DNA of 32,000 nt from positions 30,001-62,000 of the forward strand of contig OX638337.1 of NCBI GenBank assembly GCA_951812855.1, given 5' to 3'. Position 1 is the stretch's first letter. The number at the start of each line of letters is the position of its first letter. A program made the position numbers and the translations under genes. Below the pieces are notes generated by a model. It did no database searches. It was not told where the DNA came from and worked only from the letters and a program-made list of their open reading frames with translations. The DNA is from an uncultured Lentisphaeria bacterium (GTDB taxonomy: Bacteria > Verrucomicrobiota > Lentisphaeria > JABSQK01 > JAJFLO01). Shown here in pieces: positions 3,138 to 26,036 of the stretch.

Positions 3138-3267
3138 GGTGTTTTGAATTCCATTTTAATCATGAATTTAATGCACAAGCTCTATTTCGGGGGAAATATA
3201 AAAGAAACATTGATTAAGATTATGAATTATGATTGAGACTGTGATTAGGGATTAAGGATTAGTCTTC

Positions 3268-3759
3268 TTATTTTGAAAGGATTAAAGGCTTTAAGTTCAG
3301 TTTAGTACGTTCCTGATTTACTTTTTTCATGAGGTTACTATTTGATGCTAAAATTTTATTCAATTTTCCAGTACTGACAGTTAACTTTTTTGCTGCAAGA
3401 CTAATTTTCCACTGAGCGGACGAAAATGCATCTAAAATAGCGGCGATGAAAAATGGATAACGTTTGTCGTTTTTCCCGATAGACCAGGAATCCGACCATG
3501 GTTCAGCATTTTCCTTCCTGATGGACAGTGCAATTTCTAATCTTAGTTTTTTTAATGCTTCTTTTTTGTTTTGATGCTGTGACCGGCTCGATATTGCATA
3601 GGCACTGATATGTTCGTTATTAAGGGTGATGGTGATGCGAACTGCTGAATCCGTTGTATTGCGATGCTGACCACCCGGACCTGAGGCCCGGTACATTTCT
3701 ACTCGACATTGTTTTAGTAATTCGGAATCATTTGAGTTTAATAGATTGTCGCGCAGCAT
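3268..3759 (-). CDS. GGQ-motif RF-1 domain protein (ArfB/peptidyl-tRNA hydrolase-like)
   Basis: SGPGGQHRNTTDSAVRI is the class-I release factor/ArfB GGQ catalytic motif. The protein is 163 aa. Its start lies 2 nt downstream of the truA stop, in the same orientation. Confidence 0.75.
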   Translation of the reverse strand: MLRDNLLNSNDSELLKQCRVEMYRASGPGGQHRNTTDSAVRITITLNNEHISAYAISSRSQHQNKKEALKKLRLEIALSIRKENAEPWSDSWSIGKNDKRYPFFIAAILDAFSSAQWKISLAAKKLTVSTGKLNKILASNSNLMKKVNQERTKLNLKPLILSK

Positions 3760-3761
3760 AG

Positions 3762-4586
3762 TTAATCCGCCGTATTTAACAAAGCAAGAAACGGCAGTCC
3801 GATTAATTTATAATTATCCAGTTCTATTTTTGAATAGAATATTTTTTCAAGATAAAGACCCTGAGCCGGTGCTGTATCAAATCCGTTATTTCTATTTTTC
3901 AATTTAAGAATCTTTTCAGGACTCAGGAGATTGTTACTGGAAGATGTTTTTACAAAGTAACCCACCAGTCTTCTTACCATTTTATACAAAAAGCTGTTCC
4001 CCGTAATTGATATGACGATGAATTTTCCAAATGTATTTATATTAATATTATAAATTTCTTTAACATAATCAATATTCGGTGTATTTGATACAGCGGAAAA
4101 TGTGGTGAAATCATGTTTCCCGATTAATTGCGAGGCGACTTCTTTCATTTTGTTAATATCCATTGTATAGGGTACCTGCCAGCATAAGTCACCCATAAAC
4201 GGTGAGTGAAGTTTATCTGTATAAATCACATAACTGTAGGTTTTGCCTACCGCATCGAATCGTGCATGGAACTCAGGTGGCATAATCTCAATTTTCTGAA
4301 TACGAATATCCCCGGGCAAGGCATGATTTAATGCGGTTAATGCGTTTTCCGGCTGAATGGGAGGATGGTCCGGTGGAAAGAAGGTTACCATTTGTGATAA
4401 GGCATGTACACCGGCGTCGGTTCTGCTGCATCCGAATACTCGTGTTTCACCCGGGAACAGGCTTGAGAGTTTTTCTTCGATGTGGTGTTGAATGGTAATA
4501 TCGTCGGGCTGGATTTGCCAACCTGAATAGTAACTGCCTCGATATGCAATGGTAAGTAACCAGTTTAACTTTTTCGGTTGATTCAT
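3762..4586 (-). CDS. truA: tRNA pseudouridine(38-40) synthase
   Basis: Catalytic motif CSRTDAGVHA, a size of 274 aa and TruA-like sequence throughout. Confidence 0.9.
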   Translation of the reverse strand: MNQPKKLNWLLTIAYRGSYYSGWQIQPDDITIQHHIEEKLSSLFPGETRVFGCSRTDAGVHALSQMVTFFPPDHPPIQPENALTALNHALPGDIRIQKIEIMPPEFHARFDAVGKTYSYVIYTDKLHSPFMGDLCWQVPYTMDINKMKEVASQLIGKHDFTTFSAVSNTPNIDYVKEIYNININTFGKFIVISITGNSFLYKMVRRLVGYFVKTSSSNNLLSPEKILKLKNRNNGFDTAPAQGLYLEKIFYSKIELDNYKLIGLPFLALLNTAD

Positions 4587-5383: not shown

Positions 5384-5727
5384 ACCGCAGCGGTGCCTTT
5401 CATTGGTCAATAAAAAAGTCAATACAATAAACATTCTATTTGAATAAACAATTTATCTTCTTTGTTTATTTGATCTGACACTCAGGTTCAATTTGCACCG
5501 ACCCCTGCGTCGACATGATAGTTTTTCGAGGTATAACATACTCTGTTACCTGTGGTCGAGCAGATGGCCGGATGTTATAGAAATATTTGGCATCTGATTT
5601 TATGGTATTCATAATCGAGTACATTTACATTGTCCATGAGTTATTGGGCAGTTGATCTATTCCTGAGGAGTTATTCAGAGTAACTGTCGTAACTGAAAAC
5701 TGTTCAAATTATATCAATCTAAAAAAT

Positions 5728-6564
5728 GTGTCAGGAAATTCATTGAAGAAATTTTCATATTTTAGAACGGCATGCAACGGGTTTAGAAACGTAAATAAGA
5801 ACTGCATCCAAAGAGTGCTTTTAATCTGTTTTACCATCCCGTTAATACTGTTGAACGGTTGTGCTGATTCGTCGATTAATGAAATCGTAAGGGAATCACT
5901 GAATTTTGCGAAAACAGGTGATAACAGAGGTTGGAAAAAGGCATTGAAGAATGTTGAAATCTGTATCCGGCGCGGCGTAAAAAACAGCGATCTGATTACA
6001 TTTTATATTTTATGCCTTTCTCGAACTGGAAATGATGGTAAAGCGTTGGAAACCGGTCTCGAATTAGTATCCCGGGACCCGAATAATTTTCTGGGTAATT
6101 ATTTAATTGGAAAACTCTATTTTGATCGGGAGAATTATCCAAACGCCTTACCGTACCTGCAAAAGTGCAGGGAATTAAATCCTGACCACCTCAATACACT
6201 GATTTTATTACTGAAAACAGCTGCGAAGTTAAATTTACCCGTGCTCAAAGAACTCTATATACAATTATTAACTTATGATGAGTTCAAAAAATCATTTTTA
6301 GTGTATAATAATTTGGGGTGTTGGTATGCAAATCACGATGATTTCCCTCATGCCTTTAGTAATTTTTCTCAGGCTCTGCAATATTCCAATGGCCATCCTC
6401 TGGTATTCCTGAATATGGCAATTCTTAATGATTACGGCCTGAATAATGAAAAAGTTGCACAACGATACTATCTTAATTTTCTGTATAAAGCAAAAGATAA
6501 TTATCCTGATAAATCCCAAAAAGTATTAGCCCGGCTGCAAATAATTGGTAAAAAGTGGGAATAA
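5728..6564 (+). CDS. TPR-repeat lipoprotein
   Basis: Lipobox-like LILLNGC after a hydrophobic stretch. TPR-like repeats (LGNYLIGKLYFDRENYPNALPYLQKCRELNPDH). GTG start as listed in the track; the true start is uncertain. Confidence 0.6.
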   Translation: MSGNSLKKFSYFRTACNGFRNVNKNCIQRVLLICFTIPLILLNGCADSSINEIVRESLNFAKTGDNRGWKKALKNVEICIRRGVKNSDLITFYILCLSRTGNDGKALETGLELVSRDPNNFLGNYLIGKLYFDRENYPNALPYLQKCRELNPDHLNTLILLLKTAAKLNLPVLKELYIQLLTYDEFKKSFLVYNNLGCWYANHDDFPHAFSNFSQALQYSNGHPLVFLNMAILNDYGLNNEKVAQRYYLNFLYKAKDNYPDKSQKVLARLQIIGKKWE

Positions 6565-12808: not shown

Positions 12809-14164
12809 TTAGTCTTTTCCCCTGGTGTCGTTTATTATGTCCTGTAATAATCGGATCGTTTTATCAGTGGCACCTCTGTTTTTATCAACAATAGATTTTG
12901 CTTTTTCACCGAATATTAATCGTTTATCAGGATTCTCTATCAGGTCTTGAATCGCGTGGTGTAATTCTGTCTCATTATTAACCTCAATACATGCATTCTC
13001 TGATTTAAATAATTTAACAACATCTCTAAAATTATACATGTGCGGGCCAAATAAAATTGGTTTTCCAAACAATGCAGGTTCAATAATGTTATGTCCCCCT
13101 TTATTTTCGGCTAAACTCTTACCGACAAATACGATATCGGACAGATTCAGATAGTGTAACATTTCTCCCGTGGCATTTACGATCAGAATTTTAGTCCTGT
13201 TTGTATCATGGTCTGTCTGGACAGCAGTGTTATTGGTATTGAGTCTGTTGCCTAATTCTGAAGCAAGCACATAGTCACTATTCTCTTCGTTTAAGAGTTG
13301 TTCTATTTCAGCGGTTCTTTCGATATGTCTCGGGATAATAACAAGCAATAAATCCGGATATGTTTCAGCGAGTGATTTTAGCACGTGGATCATTATTTTT
13401 TCTTCGCCGGGATGGGTGCTTGCTGCTGTAAAAACGATCCGGTTTGAATTATTGCATAGATGATCTATAAACCTCGGTGCATCAGGCTTGGACAGAGACG
13501 CAATTTGATCAAACTTCATTGTATTGCAGACAACAATTTTATCCGGACGCTTAGAAATCAATGCGATTCGCCTGGCATCCTCTTTTGTTTGAGTGCAAAT
13601 GACAGTAAATTTTGCAAAAATATGTTTGAAAAAAAAACGATATTTTTGATATCCTTTAGCTGAATTATCAGACATTCGACAATTGACGATGGCTGTATCA
13701 ATATTTTTTGCAGCGGCAGTTGTTATGAGATTAGGCCAGATTTCAACTTCAAAAATAATAACCATGACAGGTTTTATGATGCTCAAAGCACGCCTGGTGA
13801 ATATGAAAAAATCCAATGGAAAATAGATCGGTATTATTCGGTCATTTTGTTGCCTTCCGGCAATGGATTGTCCGGTGCTTGTGGTTGAAGATAATATAAA
13901 TTGTACGTCGTTATCCCGTTCGCACCATTCATTTATAAAGGTTAGTGCTGCAACTGTTTCACCAACGCTGACCGCATGAATCCAAATGGGTTTTCTGCAT
14001 GCGTTAAATTGCCGTTTTTTCCCCGATGAATACACACTGAATCGTTCCCAAAATCCATTTTGATAATTCCCTCTGCGTTTCAATCTGTAAAAAAATACGG
14101 GGAGATATAGCAAAAAAAGGATTGGAAACAGGACATTGTATATAAGTAATATAAATTTTACCAT
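12809..14164 (-). CDS. waaA: 3-deoxy-D-manno-octulosonic acid (Kdo) transferase
   Basis: N-terminal membrane anchor and the characteristic WIHAVSVGE motif. 451 aa. Confidence 0.88.
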   Translation of the reverse strand: MVKFILLIYNVLFPILFLLYLPVFFYRLKRRGNYQNGFWERFSVYSSGKKRQFNACRKPIWIHAVSVGETVAALTFINEWCERDNDVQFILSSTTSTGQSIAGRQQNDRIIPIYFPLDFFIFTRRALSIIKPVMVIIFEVEIWPNLITTAAAKNIDTAIVNCRMSDNSAKGYQKYRFFFKHIFAKFTVICTQTKEDARRIALISKRPDKIVVCNTMKFDQIASLSKPDAPRFIDHLCNNSNRIVFTAASTHPGEEKIMIHVLKSLAETYPDLLLVIIPRHIERTAEIEQLLNEENSDYVLASELGNRLNTNNTAVQTDHDTNRTKILIVNATGEMLHYLNLSDIVFVGKSLAENKGGHNIIEPALFGKPILFGPHMYNFRDVVKLFKSENACIEVNNETELHHAIQDLIENPDKRLIFGEKAKSIVDKNRGATDKTIRLLQDIINDTRGKD

Positions 14165-15000
14165 ATCGTTTTGTGCTTAATGGATTTTAATGACGGAAGT
14201 TTCTTTCGAACATTCATAATTTCTTTTTTTGAAAGTGTTTCACTAATATAACCTTCATTTTCAGCCAGTGAGGAAATTACTGAACCCCAGGGATCAATTA
14301 CCATTGAATGACCGTAGGCTCTGGTATTTATGCTCTCATTTAAACCGCATTGATTGACACCTGCAACATAATACTGATTTTCAATTGCCCTGGCTTTCAG
14401 TAACACTTCCCAGTGTGATTTTCCTGTGAATTGAGTAAATTCAGACGTACAGAGCACAAGATCAGCACCTGTATACGCACGAAACAGTTCGGGGAATCTT
14501 AAATCATAACATATGGTTAAGCCTATGTTCCAGTCATTAACCGAAATTAACATCGGTTTATCTCCTGTATCAAATAATGCACGTTCGTTAATGACAGCCG
14601 TATCATAATTGAGTTGGAACAAGTGAATTTTTTTGTAATTTCCAATAACTCTTCCAGATGCATCGATCACTAATGAGGTATTATACAGCTTCCCGGAATA
14701 AAAAATGGGCAGTCCTCCCCAGACAATGGTTGATTGATACCGAATAGAGAATTCACTTAATTCATCAATAAAGAAATTTTCTTCTTTTGCAAATGTTTTA
14801 ATTTCCGCATAATTTCCACGAAATAATGTATGTTCCGGAAAAATGATCAGATCACACTCTTGATTCCGGCATTCTTCTAATAAACCAATTATTATAGATC
14901 GATTATGCCGGCAGCTGTTTGTTGATGATAATTGGGACAAAAAAATTGATAATAAACTCTGACCGGATTCATCTTTTGCCTTTGTTAAATGTGTTGTCAT
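14158..15000 (-). CDS. Carbon-nitrogen hydrolase (nitrilase superfamily)
   Basis: E-K-C triad contexts IIFPEH, YKKIHLF and LTICYDLRFPE. Overlaps waaA by 7 nt. Confidence 0.8.
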   Translation of the reverse strand: MTTHLTKAKDESGQSLLSIFLSQLSSTNSCRHNRSIIIGLLEECRNQECDLIIFPEHTLFRGNYAEIKTFAKEENFFIDELSEFSIRYQSTIVWGGLPIFYSGKLYNTSLVIDASGRVIGNYKKIHLFQLNYDTAVINERALFDTGDKPMLISVNDWNIGLTICYDLRFPELFRAYTGADLVLCTSEFTQFTGKSHWEVLLKARAIENQYYVAGVNQCGLNESINTRAYGHSMVIDPWGSVISSLAENEGYISETLSKKEIMNVRKKLPSLKSIKHKTIW

Positions 15001-16222: not shown

Positions 16223-17308
16223 CTATTCGCCTGATTTTCGACGGTTGCAATCCTTGCATAGCATCTGGCAGTTTTCGGCAATGGTCTTTCCGCCCTTGGT
16301 CCACGGCGTGATATGGTCGGCTTCCATTTCTTCTAATTTAAAATGCTCATTGCACCTCGCACAGGTGCCCTTTTTCTGCTCATACGCCTCTCGCTTTTGC
16401 TTATCTGTAAAGGCACGGACGTTTAGATGTTTTTCTTCTCCTGTCAGCAGATAGGCATAAATGCCTTTTTTACTGGTTACATCCTCATCTTCCATCAATT
16501 TTGCAACCCGTTTTTCTAAGGCATCCGGGTCGTATGTTTCATCTTTGTAGGTATTGTAAAAGTCTCCCCACCGCAAGCCTTTCATTTCTTTTTTACGGTA
16601 ATTCGGGAAAGTCTTTTGCGTCCACTCAATAACCCTTTGAAAATAATCCCACAGTTTTTTTGCATCGGACTCGTGTTGATGTGTACCCATATACTCTTCT
16701 ATCGTGCCATTGCTGAACCATTTGATGGCTGTCTCCAGATAGTCCTGTCTGATGGGGCTGCCGCTTAGGTATTTGTTACCCACTGGATAAGCAGGACAAT
16801 CCGTTTTGCTGAAATATCTTTTGGCATCGGTTACCCAAGAACCATGATAAACCGCATTTCGCAATTCCTGGTCGGTCAGTTTTTCGCCAGCGATATTGAT
16901 AGTCTTGAACCATTCCAGTTTTTCGCTGTCGGTGCCAGTGCATTGATAAATCATTAATTTATAATTTAAGATTTTTTCTTGTTCGTCATCTTGTAAACTA
17001 TAAAAATATCTTTTTTCAACAGAAAAAACACCCTTTACATATCGGCAAATGGAGACCGTGCGCTGTTGGCCGTCAATAATCTCAAAATTGTCATCACCAC
17101 GCACGGCCCAATACATGACATTTAATGGAAAGCCTTTGTTTATGGTGTCAATAACGGCATCGCGCTGTGCCTCTTTATAGATAAACTCACGCTGATACGG
17201 CGGGCGAATATCCAGCTTGCTGCCGTAGCCCTTAGCGCCGTTTTCCTGGTTGTCTTCATAGCCGTCTGCCAATTCGCGAACGGTTATCTCTTTGAGTGTT
17301 ATATCCAT
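16223..17308 (-). CDS. DUF262 (ParB/GmrSD-N-like, DGQQR motif) - HNH endonuclease fusion; candidate type IV / modification-dependent restriction nuclease
   Basis: IRPPYQREF and IIDGQQRT are the DUF262 signatures. The C-terminus CARCN...ADHITPWTKGG...NCQMLCKDCNRRK is a classical HNH zinc-finger nuclease motif. Confidence 0.8.
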   Translation of the reverse strand: MDITLKEITVRELADGYEDNQENGAKGYGSKLDIRPPYQREFIYKEAQRDAVIDTINKGFPLNVMYWAVRGDDNFEIIDGQQRTVSICRYVKGVFSVEKRYFYSLQDDEQEKILNYKLMIYQCTGTDSEKLEWFKTINIAGEKLTDQELRNAVYHGSWVTDAKRYFSKTDCPAYPVGNKYLSGSPIRQDYLETAIKWFSNGTIEEYMGTHQHESDAKKLWDYFQRVIEWTQKTFPNYRKKEMKGLRWGDFYNTYKDETYDPDALEKRVAKLMEDEDVTSKKGIYAYLLTGEEKHLNVRAFTDKQKREAYEQKKGTCARCNEHFKLEEMEADHITPWTKGGKTIAENCQMLCKDCNRRKSGE

Positions 17309-17861: not shown

Positions 17862-18794
17862 TTAGACGGAGAAATCTAAGTAGTAGGTTTCATTGTCTAT
17901 CTTGTATATTGTAACTTCTTTGCGACCGTATCTTTCTAAGTCTTCTACTCTGACCCGCTCCCCATATTCTACGCCTAATCTATTTCTAAAATATCTACCC
18001 ATAATGCTATTGTTTTCGGTTGTGTGGATGGCCTTTCCTTGCTCTTGTGCAACAACGCATATCATCGAAATATCATCGTCAGTTAGGATGGTAAATGGCA
18101 CTCCCAAAGGAGGTAAAATATTCCTCTCACGCTCTTCTATGGGAACAGGAATGTAAGCTTGGTCTAGGTTTCTGCCTTTTCTTTGCCCCCAATTTAGCCC
18201 AGCCTTTTCATGTACTTTGCCTTCCCGATTTTTTTGAGTCATGTAAAGAGGAAGGGTAACGCTAGGCAATTCTTTATTGCTTATTGCAGGATAATCTATT
18301 TTCTCTGGAATGGAAAAATGTTGATCTAGTTCGTGGGCATTACAAAATGCAGTTCTTTTGCGTGTTTTCTCTATAAATTTGAATGCTTTTTGCGGGTCTG
18401 TTATCGCCAAAACTTCTTGTTGTTGGGAGGGTAAAAATCCGTTGCTTGTGTAGTTCGCAGATCCAACATAGGCCGCGATAGGATTTTTTTCATTACTAAA
18501 AAGATAAACTTTGGCATGAACAGATGGCGAGCAAATTAAATAGTCGCAAACAAAATTTTTGTATATTTTGCATACTTGACAGAATCCTAAATGCTTTGGT
18601 CTGTCTATAGCGTTTTTTAAGGACATGCCAATCGTTAAGTGTATTTTTGCCTCGATATTATTGTTCTTAAGTTCTAGTAAATGTTTATCTGCCATAGATG
18701 GAGACGCATAACCAGAGACGATATCTAGTTTTGTGGCTTCATTGTTAAGAAATGGTTCAAGTAAAATTTTTGTAAATAAGTTTTCACTTAACAT
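17862..18794 (-). CDS. Type II restriction endonuclease, NgoFVII/BfiI-like (N-terminal PLD/HKD nuclease + C-terminal DNA-recognition domain)
   Basis: PLD-type HxK...GSxN motif in VHAKVYLFSNEKNPIAAYVGSANYT. The C-terminal LNWGQRKGRNLDQAYIPV...TDDD...MGRYFRNRLGV...YGR pattern is typical of the NgoFVII C-terminal domain. The start overlaps the C5-MTase stop by 7 nt. Confidence 0.78.
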   Translation of the reverse strand: MLSENLFTKILLEPFLNNEATKLDIVSGYASPSMADKHLLELKNNNIEAKIHLTIGMSLKNAIDRPKHLGFCQVCKIYKNFVCDYLICSPSVHAKVYLFSNEKNPIAAYVGSANYTSNGFLPSQQQEVLAITDPQKAFKFIEKTRKRTAFCNAHELDQHFSIPEKIDYPAISNKELPSVTLPLYMTQKNREGKVHEKAGLNWGQRKGRNLDQAYIPVPIEERERNILPPLGVPFTILTDDDISMICVVAQEQGKAIHTTENNSIMGRYFRNRLGVEYGERVRVEDLERYGRKEVTIYKIDNETYYLDFSV

Positions 18795-19888
18795 GGTGCG
18801 ATGCCGTATTTTTGCAGTGCCGTGAGGATTGCCCGGCAGATGACTTCTACGCCTTTTGGTGGCACTGCCATGCCGATTTGGCGGCGGACACTTTCTTTAC
18901 CACCGATAAATTCAAAGTTGTCGGGAAAAGTTTGTAGCCTTGCCCTTTCTCTATTTGTCAACGCTCTCGGTTCTTGCCAATGATAAACATGCGTTCCACC
19001 TCCACCAGAGCCTGTGACAGTGTAGGCAGGTTTGGATGGATCAAGTCTTTTGTAGATTTGACTGATAGCCGCCTTGCTTTTTAATTTTAATTTTAATTTT
19101 TCAGGAAGTTGGGCATTGAATGCGTTTTGTCCTGGTTTTATATGTTTTAGCCTTTCTATGACTTGCTTTGACTGCGTTGTAAAATCGTGGTTTAGGGCAT
19201 TGGGTTGTAGAGGCGGTGATTCTAGTGCTTCCTTACAGGTTATTATTTTCGTTTCGTTCGGTTGTGGGTGTTTGAAATCTATTTTTATGTCGTCTCTAAA
19301 TCCGACAATTATGATGCGATGGCGGCGTTGCGGCACGCCGTAATACTCAAATTTGTAAAGATTAGTGTGAATGTTGTAGCCACATTCTTGGATAGCACAA
19401 CAGATCCTTTCAAATGTGTCTTTGTTGTCGGCAGAGAGAAGGCCGCCGACATTTTCGGCTATAAAAAATTGAGGCTGGAAATGTTCAAGTGCTCTTACGC
19501 TGTGCATATACAAGCTCCCGTATTTTCCTTGAATACCTTTTTGCTCGCCTACTACGCTGAAATCGTTACATGGAAAGCCGAAAAACAAACCGTCAATAGG
19601 GTTAAAATCATCAAACTCTAGCGTGGAAATGTCAGCACATCGAACTTTACTGTTCTCTATTTTGATGTTTTTTCGGAAAGTTTCGCAAGAGTCTTTATGG
19701 TAGTCACAAGCCCAGATGTGGGACATTTTATAGGACTTGTATTGTGCTTTTTCTGCGCCTAATGCCATTCCACCAGGCCCACTGAATAGCTCGCCTATTT
19801 TGAAGGTGTTTTTGACAGATTGTTCTTGACTGCCTTGATAATCTTCAGTTAGTTCTTTGATTGAAATTTCTTTAAGCGTTATTTCCAT
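18788..19888 (-). CDS. DNA (cytosine-5)-methyltransferase
   Basis: All canonical C5-MTase motifs occur in order: FSGPGG (I), GFPCNDFS (IV), ENV in FIAENVGGL (VI), QRRHRIIIVG (VIII), TFPDNFEF, RQIGMAVPP (X). It has an unusual N-terminal extension of about 30 aa. Confidence 0.92.
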   Translation of the reverse strand: MEITLKEISIKELTEDYQGSQEQSVKNTFKIGELFSGPGGMALGAEKAQYKSYKMSHIWACDYHKDSCETFRKNIKIENSKVRCADISTLEFDDFNPIDGLFFGFPCNDFSVVGEQKGIQGKYGSLYMHSVRALEHFQPQFFIAENVGGLLSADNKDTFERICCAIQECGYNIHTNLYKFEYYGVPQRRHRIIIVGFRDDIKIDFKHPQPNETKIITCKEALESPPLQPNALNHDFTTQSKQVIERLKHIKPGQNAFNAQLPEKLKLKLKSKAAISQIYKRLDPSKPAYTVTGSGGGGTHVYHWQEPRALTNRERARLQTFPDNFEFIGGKESVRRQIGMAVPPKGVEVICRAILTALQKYGIAPC

Positions 19889-19891
19889 TTT

Positions 19892-20499
19892 TTATATTTT
19901 TTGATTTTGAGACTCATCTTTTTTTAAGGTAAAACTCCCTTTTGTCATTCTATCAGTAAAGTAATTGCCTTTTAATTCGTTATCTGCTAACTCCAAAGTA
20001 ACGGTGCCATAATGTTTGATTAAATCATCTGCTATATTGTCTGGATTATTAAAATAATTATAAATAAGCTCATCTTTATTATTCTCTGCTCGGATAAGAC
20101 AATTAATAACCACACTTCTGGATTGTTTAAAATTAGCGTTGATAGTAATATCAGTTAAAGTTTGTTTAATAGTAATCTTTACTTTAAATTTTTTGTTTTC
20201 AACATCTTCCTTATAAGTGCTTCTTCCTTATAAGTGCTTCTTCCTTCTCCGCTCCATTTTCCGCTAAAGTTTGGGATTTGTTCTTTGATGATAGGTAGAT
20301 GGAAAAACCACTCTGACAAGCAATTAAAAATAACAAAATGATTTATCAACAAACTAAAAGTAAAAATAGTTAAAGCCGTTGATATATCGTTTAAAAAAAT
20401 ATTTAAAAACCCAGTTAAGCAAAAAGTAACTAAAAAAGACAGAACAAGGGAGAGTGTGAAAGCATAATACTCTACTTTAAAATTTTTGAGATATTTCAT
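19892..20499 (-). pseudogene. CBASS effector, 2TM + beta-strand-rich C-terminal domain (Cap15 / S-2TM-beta-like), frameshifted by a 17-bp tandem duplication
   Basis: The two track ORFs 20179..20499 (two hydrophobic helices, then FSGKWSGEGRSTYKE) and 19892..20113 are joined into one 591-nt (196-aa) ORF with no stop if one copy of the 17-bp repeat is removed. The start overlaps the CD-NTase stop as ATGA. Confidence 0.7.
20207..20240. repeat. Perfect 17-bp tandem duplication (TTCCTTATAAGTGCTTC x2; 6 further matching nt follow)
   Basis: Read directly: 20207-20223 is identical to 20224-20240, and 20241-20246 (TTCCTT) repeats the unit start. 17 is not a multiple of 3. Confidence 0.95.
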
Positions 20500-21353
20500 C
20501 CTGTTACATACTCAATGACTTTTTTGAGAAATTGATGGCAATCTGTTAAATTCCATTTTGTGCTTTCATCACCAAATAAAGGTTGAATCTCATTCTGACA
20601 TTTTAAATTTTTTAAATCATTATCTCGTAACCAATTTAAACAATTAGCCAATAGAGAAGTAAAATAACTTTCATTAAATTTATCATTTGGCACATTGTAA
20701 ATTAAACATTCTACAAAGTAGGAAGGTGCTAAGCTTTCATCTATCCAATTTTCTTTAATCATCTGCCTTTTAATATTTTTAAAAATTCGCACCATCTTTT
20801 TATAATTTCCTGTTCTGCTATTCTTTTCTTCTCCATTTTGTTTATGGATTTTAGGATAGTTAATAATCTCACCTTTTGAGGATTGTATTTTTATTCCCTC
20901 ATAGTATTGCTTTTCTCCACGGTCATAATGATTTTTGTATTGAAAACAAGGTACTAAATCTACATTTTGCCAATGCTCACCTCTTAAATGTAATTCAATA
21001 CATTTATTTTTTTCTTTGTAAGAAATTCTTTCTCTGTTTAAAACACTTTTAATTTCATTTCTGAGTGCTTCTTGAGTGTAACTGCTTGGATTGTTATAAA
21101 TACTTGGATTGTAGTTATAGTTATAGTAAAAAGTCTCATTAAACTGTAAAATAATATCTATGTCACCATCAGCCCAGATATTCGTATTATTGGCAACAGA
21201 TCCTTGTAAATAAATTTCAAAATTATTTGAATTATTAAAACAAACACCTCTAAAAATATCCTTTACTTTATCGTAAGTTGCTGTATTTTTATTGAGCTGA
21301 ACACGGTTTGCCCAAGTTGCTAATTGTTGTTCTTGTATTGTTATATTTGTCAT
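20496..21353 (-). CDS. cGAS/DncV-like nucleotidyltransferase (CD-NTase, SMODS-type) of a type I CBASS
   Basis: Pol-beta NTase signature LQGSVANNTNIWADGDIDIIL (GS...DxD). Third acidic residue context NVDLVPCF. SMODS-like APSYFVECLIYNVP. Followed by a translationally coupled 2TM effector gene. Confidence 0.8.
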   Translation of the reverse strand: MTNITIQEQQLATWANRVQLNKNTATYDKVKDIFRGVCFNNSNNFEIYLQGSVANNTNIWADGDIDIILQFNETFYYNYNYNPSIYNNPSSYTQEALRNEIKSVLNRERISYKEKNKCIELHLRGEHWQNVDLVPCFQYKNHYDRGEKQYYEGIKIQSSKGEIINYPKIHKQNGEEKNSRTGNYKKMVRIFKNIKRQMIKENWIDESLAPSYFVECLIYNVPNDKFNESYFTSLLANCLNWLRDNDLKNLKCQNEIQPLFGDESTKWNLTDCHQFLKKVIEYVTG

Positions 21354-21358
21354 TATAA

Positions 21359-21449
21359 CCTCTTGTTTTTGATGATGATTCTAAAATATGGAGGATCGGG
21401 AGAAAATTTTCCACAAATGCAAGCAAGATCTTAGATGTCAGTGATTTTC
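21359..21449. repeat. 91-bp direct repeat, copy A (leader of the CBASS operon)
   Basis: Gap-free alignment with 23034-23124 at a constant offset of 1675 gives 84/91 identical by my base-by-base count. Contains the 10-bp perfect palindrome GAAAATTTTC at 21402-21411. Confidence 0.9.
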
Positions 21450-21454
21450 ATTTT

Positions 21455-21934
21455 TTAGTCTTTATTATATTTAGAAAGATCAATATCTTTCCGTTTTAGC
21501 ATTTCAAAAGTATCGACACAATCAATATCAAATTCTTTACAAATATTTGGTATTGAAGCTTTTTTAGCACCTTTCCCTAAAAAATTTTCGTGAGTGACAA
21601 TTACAATATTATATTCTTTAGCAACACACACTAACAAATAATCAGCTACATTTAGAAATTTACCAGCCTGTTCTGAGCTATAGTTTTTATAAATATAGTC
21701 AGATAACATTTGTTGGTTAGTTAATGGTTTATCATAAGAAAAAATTTTTACCGCCTTAACAAGATTCTCTAAAGTATCTTTATCTTTACCTTTGCGGATT
21801 TCGTCTTTAACTTCTTGTAAAGTAAAAATATCTTCTTCTTCTTTTAAGTATTCCCAAAAACTGGAAACTATCTTTTCTTGATAATATCGTCTATAAGCCT
21901 CAATGAATACGTTTGTATCTAAAAGATATCTCAT
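21455..21934 (-). CDS. DUF4411 PIN-like nuclease-fold protein
   Basis: The N-terminus MRYLLDTNVFIEAYRRYY...FWEYL is the PIN-like / DUF4411 signature. The ATGA overlap with the upstream ImmA gene suggests translational coupling. Confidence 0.75.
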   Translation of the reverse strand: MRYLLDTNVFIEAYRRYYQEKIVSSFWEYLKEEEDIFTLQEVKDEIRKGKDKDTLENLVKAVKIFSYDKPLTNQQMLSDYIYKNYSSEQAGKFLNVADYLLVCVAKEYNIVIVTHENFLGKGAKKASIPNICKEFDIDCVDTFEMLKRKDIDLSKYNKD

Positions 21935-23031
21935 AAAGGCAAGCCAAGTTGGCGATAATATTTATTAAAAGTCTCTCCCTTCAGCCCCGTAAGACTATAG
22001 GCATCTCTGTAAAGAGTTTCGCCTGCTAAAGTAGAATGAACTACACGAAGTAAAAAAGTCTCTCCGCCTGCTTTAAATGGGGCAGTACGATAATAATCGC
22101 CTCCACTGCCTTTAGATTTTATTCTTTGTATATTTTCTATACAATCCTTCCATTGCCTTTGAAATTCATATTCTCTAATTAAACTGGATTGTTTTGCTTT
22201 TATCAAAACAACAAAAACACTTATTTTAAATTTTTTTGCTATCCCCTCTATATTGTCAATATTAAAATATTCTTTTTTTAATTCCTTTGCAGGTAATAAA
22301 ATTTCTGATGCTATCTTATTACATGTTTTCTCCGTTTGTAAATGATATGTTCCGTCTAAAGCACTTTCATTTAAAAATAAGTGTGCCAGTTCATGGATAA
22401 GAGTAAAAATTTGACTGGATTTATAATCCCTGCCATTAATAAAAATTGCAGGAGCATATTCATCAAACAAACAAAATCCCTTAAATTCCTCTCTGTCCAA
22501 TCCTCTGCTGGTATTGCTCCCCACCACTCCATTTCTTATAATTAAAAATTCTTTGTCATCGAGTTTCTTTATTAAATTACTTAAAAAATCTTCTTGTGTC
22601 CTGCTCTCACTTCGTAATTTATCTATATCTAATAATCTTTTTATTTCAGTAATTATTTCTTTTTCACCTGTATATTTATAAGAAAAAATTTTATCCTCGC
22701 CATCTTGTATCTTTTGTTCTCTTAACCAATTTTGTTTTCTTTGAGAATCATAAATAGTTTCTAAAAGGTTAATACCTGGTTTTTCTAATTCTTTATTGTT
22801 TATTGTTCTAAAATCAGGAATAGGCAATTCTTCTTTTGGTGGCTCGGAAAGGAATAAATAACCATAAGGAACATAAAATTTTTCAGCTATTTTTTTTATT
22901 TGTTTTTCGGTAGGTTGAGACTTTCCTTCTTCCCAATCAGGATATTTACGAGAAGCAATTTTTTTTACAGCCTCTTCTAAACTGAGTTCAGCCCGCTCTC
23001 TTGCCCATTTTAATAATTCTGGATTAACCAT
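21931..23031 (-). CDS. XRE-type HTH fused to an ImmA/IrrE (COG2856) zinc metallopeptidase
   Basis: N-terminal LKWARERAELSLEEAVKKI is HTH-like. HEXXH zinc site in LIHELAHLFL. 366 aa. Confidence 0.8.
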   Translation of the reverse strand: MVNPELLKWARERAELSLEEAVKKIASRKYPDWEEGKSQPTEKQIKKIAEKFYVPYGYLFLSEPPKEELPIPDFRTINNKELEKPGINLLETIYDSQRKQNWLREQKIQDGEDKIFSYKYTGEKEIITEIKRLLDIDKLRSESRTQEDFLSNLIKKLDDKEFLIIRNGVVGSNTSRGLDREEFKGFCLFDEYAPAIFINGRDYKSSQIFTLIHELAHLFLNESALDGTYHLQTEKTCNKIASEILLPAKELKKEYFNIDNIEGIAKKFKISVFVVLIKAKQSSLIREYEFQRQWKDCIENIQRIKSKGSGGDYYRTAPFKAGGETFLLRVVHSTLAGETLYRDAYSLTGLKGETFNKYYRQLGLPL

Positions 23032-23033
23032 AG

Positions 23034-23124
23034 CCTTTTGTTTTTGATGATGATTCTAAAATCAGGAGGATTGGGAGAAAATTTTCCACAAATGCAAGCA
23101 ACATCTTAGATGTCAGTAATTCTC
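23034..23124. repeat. 91-bp direct repeat, copy B (leader of the ImmA-DUF4411 operon; overlaps the last 4 codons of the GHKL gene)
   Basis: See copy A. The palindrome GAAAATTTTC lies at 23077-23086. Confidence 0.9.
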
Positions 23125-24987
23125 TTTCTTAATAATATCTAAAAAAGTTTTATTACGTGCTCGAGCGTTAGAGATAACCTCTTCTGCAGATATTACATAA
23201 AGGTACAGAGATAATTTTTCATAGTATTTGAAATAAATCTTTTCCCTGGTTGAGAATAACAATTTGAAATCATCATTCTTTAGTTTTTGCTCAAAATCAT
23301 CACCTATATTGGTAATCAAGTAATACCAAACGTTGTTTAACTTTTCTGCTCCTTTGAAGCTGTTAGCATATTCTCTTATCTCCTCTAATCCAGCGAATTT
23401 CTTTTTTCCATCTATATTTAAAGCCTTGAGTTCTATAATGACCGCATTATAATTGCCTTCTTCTTTCTGGAAAAATATTGAAATGTCCGGTCTGCCCCGG
23501 TCTTGATTATTTGATTGAGGGAATATTTTTTTTAAACTTTCTTTTATACTTTTTTCGCTGGCTGCATAACTATAACTCATAAATTTATCGTCAATAAGCC
23601 AAATATTATTTTCTGCAGGACCAAGATATTTTTTACTTCCTTTTTCGGTATCTGAACCTCTCTCCATCAATAAATTATGCAGCACCTTTTCCTTTCCGTT
23701 GTGCTTTTGACTTAAAGTTTCTAATTCTGATATTATTTTATCTCGCATTAAAATATATTCTGTCAGTTCTTGACCTGCTAATGTGCTTGCTTTTTTAAGC
23801 AATTCATTACTTCTATATTTTTTACCTTCCACTTCCTTTCTGAAAGATTGTTTTTCTTTTAAAAATTTTTCTTCGGCTTGTTTAATAATATTTTCTTGTT
23901 TGATCAAGCCTCCTAAATAATTTATATCTCCAAGATAATCTACTAAATGTAAATGTTTACGTTTAATTCTTTTAATTATTTCTTTATACTCGTCTTCTAA
24001 TTCTGGAAATTTTTCTTTTAAAATAGTTGCAATCTCCTGATCTAATCCTTGATTGATCATCTCCCAGGAAAAATCGCCAAACAATGTATCTTTTGCTTGA
24101 TTAGGGTTCATGGAAAAATCATTCCTCTCATTATCTACTTTATCATCTAAAAAATCAGAGGATAATAAAAAGATGATTTGACATTCATCTATCGGATTAA
24201 TGGAAAAATTTTTATTTTTATCTTTAAACCTACAAACTGTTCGGGAATTAGCACAGTAGAATCCTCGCATTTTGTTCAAATCCTTTAAACTCAATTCTTC
24301 TATGGAGTAATTTAGAATAAATTCAACATCCTGTTCTCTTGTATCTTTTATGTTGAATGAATGTTCTTCAAAAGTCGGTAAATCGGACGTTTTAATATTA
24401 GCTTCGTCATTGCTGTCTTTATTTTCTAAAGTAATGACAATGTTGGAATCCCTCTTTAAATACAATAACGGCAACAAATGACTATATAGTTTATCTCTCA
24501 CTGCTTGAATGGAATAAAAACTATTTATCTTTGGGTCAATACCATTGAATTCTATTGTAGTTTTATTGTTTTTTATATTGTTTTTTTCAACTTTTGTTAT
24601 ATGCTTTTCTTCTTCAAATTTTTCGCTAAAATTTATCTTGACGAGTTTTTTCTCTTCTTTTACTAAACTTTCTATCTTAATATCTGAGAAAATTTTTAAG
24701 AAGGAAATTCTTCCTATTCCTTTACATCCTAAATCTATTTTTTCTTTCGTGCCGTATTCACAAAAAGACTCAATATTTTTATCTGTAAAACCCTTGCCAT
24801 TATCAATGACAGAAAGTTTTTCTAAACAGGTTTTTTCTTGCTGTAATGATAATTCATTATAATATTCTATACGGATTTTTATATCAGTTGCTTCTGCTTG
24901 TATGGAATTAGTAACTGCCTCTTGCAGAACGGTCAACGGGTTAACTTTTTTAAGATTAGAAACCATTCTAGGGAGATTGATTTTCAT
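23113..24987 (-). CDS. GHKL (HATPase_c_3 / MORC-MutL-like) ATPase fused to a C-terminal PD-(D/E)xK nuclease-like domain
   Basis: Bergerat-fold motifs occur in order: N-box EAVTNSIQA, G1 VIDNGKGF, G2 GCKGIGRISF. A long Lys/Glu-rich middle region follows. C-terminal GRPDISIFF then about 18 aa then VIIELK gives a PD...ExK arrangement. Confidence 0.7.
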   Translation of the reverse strand: MKINLPRMVSNLKKVNPLTVLQEAVTNSIQAEATDIKIRIEYYNELSLQQEKTCLEKLSVIDNGKGFTDKNIESFCEYGTKEKIDLGCKGIGRISFLKIFSDIKIESLVKEEKKLVKINFSEKFEEEKHITKVEKNNIKNNKTTIEFNGIDPKINSFYSIQAVRDKLYSHLLPLLYLKRDSNIVITLENKDSNDEANIKTSDLPTFEEHSFNIKDTREQDVEFILNYSIEELSLKDLNKMRGFYCANSRTVCRFKDKNKNFSINPIDECQIIFLLSSDFLDDKVDNERNDFSMNPNQAKDTLFGDFSWEMINQGLDQEIATILKEKFPELEDEYKEIIKRIKRKHLHLVDYLGDINYLGGLIKQENIIKQAEEKFLKEKQSFRKEVEGKKYRSNELLKKASTLAGQELTEYILMRDKIISELETLSQKHNGKEKVLHNLLMERGSDTEKGSKKYLGPAENNIWLIDDKFMSYSYAASEKSIKESLKKIFPQSNNQDRGRPDISIFFQKEEGNYNAVIIELKALNIDGKKKFAGLEEIREYANSFKGAEKLNNVWYYLITNIGDDFEQKLKNDDFKLLFSTREKIYFKYYEKLSLYLYVISAEEVISNARARNKTFLDIIKKENY

Positions 24988-25040: not shown

Positions 25041-26036
25041 TCATTTTTGCGAGTCTCTGTTGCGGATGATGATTCTATTATAGATATTACGTCCATTTAT
25101 TTTTGTTAAGCATTCATACCCAATCCATCTTGCTGAGTTTGCTATCCCCAAAATCTCAAACTGATCCGGATTATATTTATCCATAAAGGTAATGGGTACG
25201 CCCATAGCACCGGCGTAGTCCATAGGGATTTCTTTTACCTTACTCACTTCAATGGCATCGTAGTTATCGTATGTTGGATAGTCGGCAGGCGTGTATTTTT
25301 TGTAGAGGATAAGTTCTTCATGACGTTTTTGGTGGTCTAAGTTGGTAAACCAGTTGATACTTCCTTTACTAAAATACTTCGTGCCGTTTTCTATTTTCTT
25401 CCGTGATTCGGTTTTTATATCGTAGTTGTCAGGGACGCGAAACCATTTTGTGCCGCCGTTATCATAACCGAGCCAGATTTTATTTTCTTTTATGAGCTTA
25501 AAAATTTCCTTGTAAGTGATTGCATTTTGATCTCCGATTATCACAAACTTCTTATCGTATTCAACAAGCTGCGACACATATTCACGAAACAGTGAGAACG
25601 GCGGGTTGGTAACGACAATATCGGCTTGCTCTAACAGCTTAATTGCCTCTGGACTGCGAAAATCGCCATCGCCTTTGAAGGCTTTAACACCTATCTCCTC
25701 CGGATCAGGTACTTTGTTGTGGTTTTTGTCGCCTTCGTATTCCAAATAGATGGCCTGTTCACAGTCGTGCTGACTGAATAAATCCATATTTTGATTTTTA
25801 TAGCAGGCGGTGATGAGTTTTTTTAAGCCGAATGCCTCAAACCCGTATGAAAAATAATGAAAAAAACCGCTGATACGCGGGTCATCGCAGTTGCAGTAAA
25901 CCGTTTTGTTTTTGAAATGATGCCAGTAGTGTTTCAGCTCATTTTCAATATCGGACAGTTGCGTATAAAACTCATCTTTTTTGGTGTTTTTGGCGGCGTG
26001 TAGATTGGTGTTTTTAGTTGCCTTGCTCATGGTCAT
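25041..26036 (-). CDS. N6-adenine DNA methyltransferase, EcoRI-methylase-like family
   Basis: Catalytic motif IV VVTNPPFSLFREY (NPPF). N-terminal KDEFYTQLSDIE...VYCNCDDP, and C-terminal YDNYDAIEVSK...MGVPITFMDKYNP, as I recall for this family. Confidence 0.78.
   Translation of the reverse strand: MTMSKATKNTNLHAAKNTKKDEFYTQLSDIENELKHYWHHFKNKTVYCNCDDPRISGFFHYFSYGFEAFGLKKLITACYKNQNMDLFSQHDCEQAIYLEYEGDKNHNKVPDPEEIGVKAFKGDGDFRSPEAIKLLEQADIVVTNPPFSLFREYVSQLVEYDKKFVIIGDQNAITYKEIFKLIKENKIWLGYDNGGTKWFRVPDNYDIKTESRKKIENGTKYFSKGSINWFTNLDHQKRHEELILYKKYTPADYPTYDNYDAIEVSKVKEIPMDYAGAMGVPITFMDKYNPDQFEILGIANSARWIGYECLTKINGRNIYNRIIIRNRDSQK

Follow-up and report, generated by a model that had tools for sequence, protein, structure and literature searches.

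The locus described here resembles two characterized systems. In VapBC52 of M. tuberculosis (Rv2515c/Rv2514c; PDB 9VZY/9VZZ), the antitoxin undergoes self-cleavage triggered by ssDNA and the toxin cleaves tRNA, activities that have been reported for VapBC52 only (PMC13273310). The gene combination to which VapBC52 corresponds, HTH-DUF955 with DUF4411, was predicted as a three-component toxin-antitoxin (TA) system by Matelska et al. 2017 (PMC5499597). The second system is the CapH/CapP pair, which is encoded upstream of the CBASS core and divergently from it, with one shared promoter region between them (Lau et al. 2022, bioRxiv 10.1101/2022.04.27.489752).

A VapBC52-like module beside a CBASS operon

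Our analysis covered a 32-kb stretch of DNA, hereafter the window. Pfam and PADLOC upheld the identities originally proposed for the GHKL ATPase, HTH+M78, DUF4411/PIN, CD-NTase and Cap15 genes, which are listed here together with two restriction-modification (R-M) genes of the window:

25041-26036, minus strand: intact EcoRI-family methylase (type a), C-terminus ...IYNRIIIRNRDSQK
23113-24987, minus strand: GHKL ATPase, 624 aa; its open reading frame ends inside repeat copy B
21931-23031, minus strand: HTH + M78 (ImmA/IrrE) peptidase, 366 aa; VapB52-type antitoxin homolog
21455-21934, minus strand: DUF4411 PIN-like protein, 159 aa; VapC52-type toxin candidate
20496-21353, minus strand: CD-NTase (CBASS cyclase), 285 aa, from Pfam and PADLOC
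19892-20499, minus strand: Cap15-type 2TM CBASS effector, with a frameshift in this strain
16223-17308, minus strand: GmrSD-N/HNH nuclease, in relatives the usual partner directly after the EcoRI-family methylase

The GHKL, TA and CBASS genes form a low-GC, compositionally foreign block (27-31% GC versus 37-43% for everything around). The frameshift in Cap15 results from a 17-bp tandem duplication (20243-20210), and the gene is intact in the sister strain (196 aa).

A phmmer comparison aligned residues 1-252 of the HTH-M78 protein with PDB 9VZY_A (E 1.5e-16), an entry that we checked to be the VapBC52 deposit, and Pfam returned Peptidase_M78 (3.4e-13) along with a weak HTH_19 match. The DUF4411 gene (Pfam, 3.1e-31) lies directly downstream and overlaps the antitoxin gene by 4 nt, and this pairing is kept in 72 of 87 related loci. 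The FR motif of VapB52 (F75/R76) is represented by F74/R75, invariant in an alignment of 23 sequences and aligned to the DFR of 9VZY_A. The C229 switch of VapB52 was not recovered in a single pairwise HMMER alignment, where the Cys of 'teglcd' falls opposite a gap in 'nesal.d'; this cysteine is a feature of the mechanism and not a criterion for family membership. The PADLOC capP model also matched the peptidase domain of the HTH-M78 protein (2e-12, residues 179-279, with the HEXXH at H213-H217), and the RmrA models fitted it better than capP. Judged from these sequence comparisons, HTH-M78 and DUF4411 together are homologous to VapBC52 and do not form a typical CapH/CapP regulator.

R-M genes are commonly associated with the HTH-M78 TA module, and R-M or defence genes make up about 12 of the 31 co-oriented downstream neighbors of HTH-M78/DUF4411. 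An EcoRI-like methylase and a GmrSD/HNH nuclease, both of which also occur in the window, stand beside the TA genes in five of the seven closest TA orthologs. The CD-NTase clade of the window was found near HTH-M78 in 0 of 87 related loci (in a search of the flanks limited to that clade), and an HTH-M78 gene occurred in 0 of the 4 closest CBASS loci.

A repeated segment ahead of two operons

The TA cassette is flanked by two direct repeats inside the foreign block. The original prediction had described a gap-free repeat of 91 bp at a constant offset of 1675, and a repeat search of the 32-kb window confirmed that the pair is real and slightly longer: 101 nt at 90% identity, gap-free, with the same offset. 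The borders of the copies lay where they had been proposed, but the 'start' and 'end' given to them were reversed relative to transcription, since all of the genes lie on the minus strand. The two copies and their parts are as follows:

21355-21455, minus strand: repeat copy A, the whole gap from the DUF4411 stop (21457-21455) to the CD-NTase ATG (21353-21351)
23030-23130, minus strand: repeat copy B, from the last GHKL codons to the HTH-M78 start codon
21398-21455, minus strand: distal part of copy A, carrying GAAAATTTTC (21411-21402); the 13-bp palindrome is broken by one mismatch
23073-23130, minus strand: distal part of copy B, carrying ACATCTAAGATGT (23113-23101, 13-bp palindrome), TTGCTTGCATTTG and GAAAATTTTC (23086-23077)
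21353-21397, minus strand: 3' end of a type-b EcoRI-family methylase gene, preserved as a fossil in copy A, DPPYFRIIIKNKRL-stop; its TAA overlaps the CD-NTase ATG
23028-23072, minus strand: 3' end of a type-b EcoRI-family methylase gene, preserved as a fossil in copy B, NPPDFRIIIKNKRL-W; the former stop TGA is now TGG
21378-21383 (copy A) and 23053-23058 (copy B), minus strand: TAGAAT, the best -10-like hexamer, putative, formed by the fossil codons F-R-I

Identity between copies A and B rises to 95% over the central 80 nt, and the 28-mer core occurs exactly twice in the window against 0.00 expected. There is no other long repeat within the 32 kb. Both copies are unchanged in the sister strain, which indicates that the arrangement is stable.

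Beyond the pair, neither the window nor the collections of genomes, metagenomes, viral contigs, plasmids and phages yielded a real copy. The exact 22-mer core had 0 matches in 185k species genomes, and blastn of the repeat against the plasmid collection returned none. Matches to the exact 19-mer core (17 in metagenomes, 1 in a viral contig) were dismissed as chance, the sequence around the core being about 27% identical. Three short blastn matches to phages were obtained, and the best of them, a chance match, fell within protein-coding sequence of an uncultured megaphage.

The gene-proximal 45 nt as the fossil end of a methylase gene

One reading frame is open for 28 codons in both copies, ending in DPPYFRIIIKNKRL-stop in copy A and in NPPDFRIIIKNKRL-W in copy B. 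These endings closely resemble the C-termini of type-b EcoRI-family methylases, of which 120 end in ...DVPYARIIIKNKRL/KKL and seven end exactly in PYARIIIKNKRL. Copy A matches 12 of 14 residues of the methylase C-terminal motif P-Y-x-R-I-I-I-K-N-K-(K/R)-L and has a stop codon in register, and copy B matches the same motif except that its stop has mutated to TGG. The strict motif followed by a stop was found in 0 of 300 simulated windows. Furthermore, the DNA register of the repeat is that of the true methylase-to-HNH junctions of loci L003 and L085b, in which the downstream ATG lies at the methylase stop, and the ATG of HTH-M78 (23031-23029) occupies the place that the ATG of the following gene has in intact CTATGA junctions. 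The same fossil is present directly upstream of the ATG in two TA orthologs, L003 (RIIIKSKRL-stop) and L002 (KMIKNKRL-stop). A weaker version precedes the closest CD-NTase ortholog (L107), with a score of 32 that exceeds all 111 background regions. On this sequence evidence, the gene-proximal 45 nt of each copy are the fossil 3' end of an EcoRI-family methylase gene. Its degree of preservation fits selection on translation initiation and equally a recent event.

The likeness ends with the tail. The distal 66 nt showed chance-level identity to seven methylase genes, gene-wide local scores against these seven yielded one p=0.01 that was not significant after multiple testing, and an extension of the homology into the distal ~55 nt was accordingly rejected as chance. 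Nothing similar to these distal ~55 nt was found in any related locus compared. Attempts to decide from upstream similarity to which of the two genes the leader is native gave ambiguous results as long as the 3' block common to both had not been identified as the tail of a methylase. Upstream of the GHKL gene, a third occurrence of TAGAATCATCATC (25065-25077) was considered as a shared promoter motif and rejected; it lies inside the intact type-a methylase gene, where coding constraint on the conserved motif YxRIIIKN explains the match.

Palindromes and promoter signals

The 10-bp palindrome GAAAATTTTC occurs in both copies where it had been predicted (21402-21411 and 23077-23086). It is not significant, given that an inverted repeat of equal or greater length appears in 79% of shuffled versions of the 120-nt region, and it is absent from the orthologous upstream regions examined. 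The smaller ATCT-A-AGAT palindrome is likewise present, and in copy B alone it extends to the 13 bp of ACATCTAAGATGT. Palindrome enrichment upstream of the HTH-M78 family was weak (8 of 75 regions at p<=0.05). A C.Csp231I-type operator (CTAAG-N5-CTTAG, PMC4321490) was set aside because the leader contains only CTAAG-N6-CTTGC. Scans for sigma-70 promoters and terminators gave counts at shuffle level and no call inside the repeats; TAGAAT, a putative promoter element, went unlisted by the sigma-70 scan because its -35 is weak.

Origin and possible function of the repeat

The repeats are probably a duplicated junction segment left by recombination-driven insertion of a cassette, which incidentally gave both operons the same 5' flank. 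Such an origin had been one of two readings originally proposed, in which the repeats were cassette boundaries left by insertion or recombination, and it gains specific support from the methylase fossil with its stop/ATG junction, from the bracketing of the TA genes by the repeats in a foreign block, and from duplicated flanks in three related loci (L004, L013 and L065). In L004, the 3' end of hsdS is duplicated around an AAA_13 gene and ends at a start codon. The TA pairs of L013 and L065 lie between repeats that are GC-rich or hairpin-bearing, have extra partial copies, resemble genome-specific elements and may represent a different phenomenon.

Under this explanation, the segment would be composite, with its gene-proximal 45 nt derived from a decayed type-b methylase 3' end that includes the overlap between the stop and the next start. 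In intact relatives, such a junction joins the methylase to its GmrSD/HNH nuclease. The first gene after the junction is the VapB52-like antitoxin in copy B and in the two closest TA orthologs, and the CD-NTase in copy A; it is because an antitoxin or a CD-NTase, and not the nuclease, comes after the junction that the repeats most likely mark cassette boundaries, at which defence cassettes entered an R-M operon by recombination. A unit of segment plus TA genes may then have recombined by homology into a resident segment ahead of CBASS, through a Campbell-type event or unequal crossover, and TA genes bracketed by two copies of the segment are the arrangement expected from such an insertion. This may have taken place in the low-GC donor from which the GHKL-TA-CBASS block came. 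The fossil would have been kept because it carries the translation-initiation region of the downstream gene and possibly, in its R-I codons, the -10 box TAGAAT. As a by-product, the two operons would have come to share one 5' flank and probably their expression signals. Neither an empty site nor a single-copy allele turned up among the related loci; the recombination mechanism and the order of events are inferred, and the insertion or duplication may have run in either direction.

The other reading proposed at the outset was that the palindrome is an operator for the HTH of the M78 protein, which would control CBASS in the manner of CapH/CapP. Restated for a VapB52-like antitoxin, the HTH would bind a distal site, either GAAAATTTTC, overlapping the -35 of a TAGAAT promoter, or ACATCTAAGATGT, and repress its own operon together with CBASS, and ssDNA-triggered self-cleavage would free the PIN toxin and derepress CBASS. 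We regard this as possible but less probable. It would be consistent with the 100-nt 5' flank that both operons share up to their ATGs, with the position that GAAAATTTTC would occupy from about -40 to -31 of the putative promoter, and with the frequent placement of the HTH-M78/DUF4411 module at the head of defence operons; CapH/CapP do regulate CBASS, and 15 systems with a CapH-CapP fusion have been described (bioRxiv 10.1101/2022.04.27.489752). A 29-nt block bearing the palindrome is identical in both copies of both strains, and the HTH domain is invariant between the strains in a protein that is otherwise mosaic, but the block that is invariant between strains measures 300 nt and is not specific to the leader. 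Against the operator stand also the shuffle result for the palindrome, the small number of family upstream regions with a significant one, the absence of the distal part upstream of any TA or CD-NTase ortholog examined, and the lack of a sigma-70 call at the repeats. Moreover, VapB52-type antitoxins of this kind keep company with DUF4411 and, in the loci compared, never stand beside this CD-NTase clade elsewhere, nor do the closest CBASS relatives contain HTH-M78. That the HTH controls both operons is possible but finds no positive support in our analysis. Any regulatory part of the repeat could be precisely the distal ~55 nt, in which the palindromes lie. The operator would be compatible with an origin of the repeat as a recombination scar.

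Two other explanations appear far less plausible. That the copies are two island members of a genome-wide REP/MITE-like intergenic element is very unlikely: although elements resembling genome-specific repeats flank the TA pairs of L013 and L065, the 32-kb window holds only two copies, each directly adjoining a start codon and oriented with the gene, real copies were not encountered across the collections searched, the gene-proximal half is a recognisable gene fossil, and a stable hairpin is absent from both strands (fold z-scores +0.56 to +1.53). Least credible, and already disfavoured, is a structured RNA leader (riboswitch, attenuator or sRNA) common to both operons. The location of the segment directly 5' of two start codons and its duplication at high identity would suit such a leader, but in both copies each strand folds with a weaker minimum free energy than shuffled sequence does, the terminator scan found no terminator-like site, and no mini-ORF is kept between copies A and B. 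A search of 19.5-26.5 kb against Rfam with a cutoff of E<=1 gave two unrelated sub-threshold matches, neither of them inside the repeats.

If the repeat is only a scar of recombination, the locus would be an unusually legible record of defence-island assembly, in which cassettes were inserted exactly at a methylase/nuclease junction and the tail of the old gene was kept as a ribosome-binding region. A broader and rather speculative extension, which we consider doubtful, is that the methylase-tail stop/start junction is a portable docking module: a cassette such as a VapBC52-like TA pair or a two-gene CBASS would travel with the tail fossil, which would supply both a translation-initiation region and recombination homology into resident methylase/nuclease operons, where duplicated tails would be left behind as boundaries; defence islands would be built in an integrase-free but integron-like manner, and here the duplicated segment would also wire CBASS to the TA promoter. 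Should methylase tails recur as boundaries in other genomes, they would define a simple homology rule for the landing sites of defence genes, and fossil gene tails before start codons would offer a search handle for cassette limits. If the segment also holds a VapB52-like operator, an ssDNA-sensing TA switch would have been tied to CBASS through promoter duplication and not through a dedicated CapH/CapP pair.

Comparison with known systems

With VapBC52, the predicted TA module of the window shares an N-terminal Xre-type HTH, an IrrE/ImmA HEXXH domain, the DFR motif and a downstream DUF4411 PIN gene. It differs in being flanked by a duplicated junction segment and in abutting a CBASS operon. 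The likeness to CapH/CapP lies in the combination of an HTH with an IrrE-family M78 peptidase that adjoins a CBASS operon; in contrast to CapH/CapP, the gene of the window runs in the same direction as CBASS, a PIN toxin gene and a second copy of the 5' flank lie between the two, and its homologs are not CBASS-associated (none of the 87 loci, for this CD-NTase clade). L004 offers a parallel for the architecture, in that a duplicated 3' end (~86-100 nt) of the upstream modification or specificity gene lies on either side of an inserted gene and stops at a start codon, but the gene family there is Type I hsdS and not an EcoRI-family methylase, and one of the L004 copies is still inside an intact gene. 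The methylase/GmrSD-HNH junctions of L003, L085 and L086 match the proximal 45 nt in register, with an ATG overlapping the methylase stop; unlike them, the repeats of the window have lost the methylase body, and the gene that follows is the TA antitoxin in copy B or the CD-NTase in copy A.

Two copies of one segment in a defence island

The only family of long direct repeats in the 32-kb window consists of copy A (21355-21455) and copy B (23030-23130), which a repeat search aligned over 101 nt at 90% identity, gap-free and at the constant offset of 1675 originally described; a 28-nt core occurs exactly twice in the window, against 0.00 expected. Copy A is the entire gap between the DUF4411 and CD-NTase genes, copy B begins inside the last GHKL codons, and each abuts a start codon, in agreement with the predicted placement before the CD-NTase and HTH-M78 (HTH-ImmA) genes. 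The 10-bp palindrome described in both copies is present at 21402-21411 and 23077-23086, but is unremarkable in such AT-rich DNA, with 79% of shuffles of the 120-nt region containing an inverted repeat of equal or greater length. Every gene around the copies lies on the minus strand, in the following order of transcription.

Genes and repeat copies in transcription order
26036-25041, minus: EcoRI-family methylase, first
24987-23113, minus: GHKL ATPase, followed by copy B
23031-21931, minus: HTH + M78 peptidase, directly after copy B
21934-21455, minus: DUF4411 PIN, followed by copy A
21353-20496, minus: CD-NTase, directly after copy A
19892-20499, minus: Cap15 effector, split
Successive genes after Cap15, minus: C5 methylase, NgoFVII-type nuclease, ORF6N, GmrSD/HNH nuclease

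The GHKL, HTH-M78, DUF4411, CD-NTase and Cap15 genes (19892-24987) have a GC content of 27-31%, whereas the chromosomal flanks have 39-41% and other island genes 37-43%; the stretch from GHKL through both repeat copies to CBASS (CD-NTase and Cap15) is therefore a single compositionally foreign block. A perfect 17-bp tandem duplication (GGAAGAAGCACTTATAA twice, 20210-20243, minus strand) throws Cap15 out of frame; a sister strain from the same sample has the gene intact (196 aa), so CBASS has probably lost its activity in the window strain alone.

A fossil methylase tail

The exact 13-mer TAGAATCATCATC occurs three times in the window (0.08 expected). The third occurrence, first seen as a weak third repeat match, lies at 25065-25077, within the 3' end of the intact methylase coding sequence and 78 nt before GHKL begins, and codes for the conserved methylase C-terminal motif Y-x-R-I-I-I. 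It is preceded by TATAAT and could also serve as a GHKL promoter. In the frame of this motif both copies stay open over 28 codons, with DPPYFRIIIKNKRL-stop at the end of copy A and NPPDFRIIIKNKRL-W at the end of copy B. The intact EcoRI-family methylase of the window is of type a; 120 homologs of the type-b methylase in the related locus L085 end in ...GIVDVPYARIIIKNK(K/R)L, seven of them in exactly PYARIIIKNKRL. The strict motif with stop appeared in none of 300 simulated windows. A common DNA register (AGAAT.AT.ATCAAAA...T-ATG) unites the methylase-to-HNH junctions of L003 and L085b, the regions upstream of the HTH-M78/DUF4411 pair in the window and L003, and copy A, with the downstream ATG at the position of the methylase stop in the aligned junctions. 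Because the C-terminal motif, stop and ATG register match real methylase junctions, the gene-proximal 45 nt of each copy are a fossil (type-b) methylase tail with its stop/start junction. The fossil is more decayed in L002 and weaker in L107, the closest CD-NTase ortholog. The distal ~55 nt, bearing both palindromes, showed chance-level identity to methylase genes and no match in the related loci compared.

L085 (8189-10510) carries two tandem EcoRI-family methylases of different C-terminal types before a GmrSD/HNH nuclease, one like the intact methylase of the window and the fossil-like one directly before the nuclease.

The toxin-antitoxin pair and related loci

The family of the HTH-M78 protein is very large and spans several phyla; residues 1-252 of the protein, DFR motif included, match chain A of the VapBC52 deposit (PDB 9VZY; E 1.5e-16). 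[quoted passage not shown] (PMC5499597). Since DUF4411 accompanies HTH-M78 in 72 of 87 related loci, the two form a conserved predicted toxin-antitoxin (TA) pair. The pair is habitually placed at the head of restriction-modification (R-M) or defence operons: among 31 loci, 6-7, drawn from several phyla, have Type I HsdR as the next gene (L007, L039, L045, L005, L042, L030, L031 and others), sometimes overlapping the DUF4411 stop, and elsewhere an EcoRI-like methylase, HsdS, N6-methylase or AAA_21 gene.

The closest TA orthologs (55-65% identity) adjoin an EcoRI-like methylase and a GmrSD/HNH nuclease, both also found in the window, in otherwise different chromosomal surroundings. The nearest relatives of this CBASS consist of only two genes, minimal cassettes of which some lie beside or within Type III or Type III-like R-M operons. 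In L108 (3881-10197) CBASS lies between methylase and Res helicase, 29 nt past the methylase, and in L107 (3-1180) the C-terminus of a methylase of this type comes before it.

Duplicated flanks also bracket inserted cassettes in L004, L013 and L065. In L004 the conserved 3' end of Type I hsdS is duplicated (3229-3314 and 5846-5931; 86 nt, 94%) around an AAA_13 ATPase gene inserted a short way upstream of HTH-M78, the duplicate ending at a start codon. The methylase and GHKL pair of the window has an echo in L004, where a 703-aa GHKL ATPase comes after a C5 methylase. In L013 and L065 the TA pair lies between repeats of 81-160 nt: 142 nt, 100% identical, in L013 (Verrucomicrobiota; 764-905 and 2781-2922), and 81 nt, 93%, in L065 (Flavobacterium; 3693-3773 and 5592-5672). 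These repeats are GC-rich or hairpin-bearing, stop short of start codons and are accompanied by additional partial copies close by, and look like genome-specific repeat elements.

Variation in the sister strain

The same island occurs on a second contig of the sample (L111), with copies A and B identical to those of the window. Since they sit in a 300-nt invariant block that includes the HTH domain, this identity is no specific evidence of constraint on the leaders. The flanks are 99.7% identical, and DUF4411, CD-NTase and both leaders identical or almost so; GHKL (23113-24987) differs by 5.3% and HTH-M78 by 6.5%, the latter in its C-terminal part (21931-22250). The differences form mosaic patches, mostly non-synonymous (49 in one 200-nt patch), which suggests that these two proteins either recombined with divergent alleles or are under diversifying selection. 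A 1-nt indel at ~23132 (9900 in L001, the window's own locus), where copy B has its 5' edge, shifts the end of the GHKL protein, so that the two strains end in ..KKENY-stop and ..RKRITDI-stop, at different stop codons both inside the repeat; copy A keeps ..KITDI-stop in the GHKL frame. Downstream of the island, CN_hydrolase is one intact gene in the window (280 aa; 14158-15000) and falls into two pieces in L111 (150 + 131 aa; 18023-18864).

Origin and possible role of the repeat

We consider it rather probable that the two copies stem from duplication of a junction segment, as a unit of segment and TA pair recombined by homology into a resident segment before CBASS, or the reverse. The fossil would have been retained because it contains the ribosome-binding region (AAGG/AGAGG) of the downstream gene, and perhaps a -10 box, TAGAAT, made of F-R-I codons. 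The predicted reading as cassette boundaries is supported by the methylase relic, the junction register and the foreign composition, which, like the gene identities, are observed; the recombination route, the order of events and any promoter activity are what we infer.

Alternatively, though this is very unlikely, the repeat may belong to a genome-specific family with further copies in the source genome. In the collections searched, which do not include the source genome, the common intergenic element that the original prediction named as its own refutation was not encountered: the 22-mer core matched none of 185,579 species genomes, and metagenome, viral, plasmid and phage collections held no other copy. 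Matches to a 19-mer core (17 metagenome, one viral) were attributed to chance, with ~27% identity beyond the core, and phage matches were short, the best within a coding region. There was no Rfam match and no stable RNA fold, both copies folding worse than shuffled sequence on both strands.

A shared control site for HTH-M78, compatible with a junction-segment origin, is a less likely addition. In its favor, the -35 position of the putative TAGAAT promoter would coincide in part with the palindrome, and the proposal is biologically plausible because the TA module heads R-M operons in ~12 of 31 loci; however, it lacks statistical or comparative support. CapH/CapP genes are divergent from CBASS, with a promoter region in common and 15 fusions known (bioRxiv 10.1101/2022.04.27.489752), whereas the HTH-M78 gene of the window is co-oriented with CBASS. 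A CD-NTase of the window's clade was near none of the 87 HTH-M78 loci, and HTH-M78 was at none of the four closest CBASS loci, which argues against the CapH/CapP-like control first proposed.

TA modules of this kind, CapH/CapP-type CBASS control and defence-island mosaicism are already known. What is new is the finding that half of the shared 'leader' is a gene fossil, one that also stands before orthologous cassettes; this suggests that methylase/nuclease junctions may serve as a homology-based docking site for cassettes.
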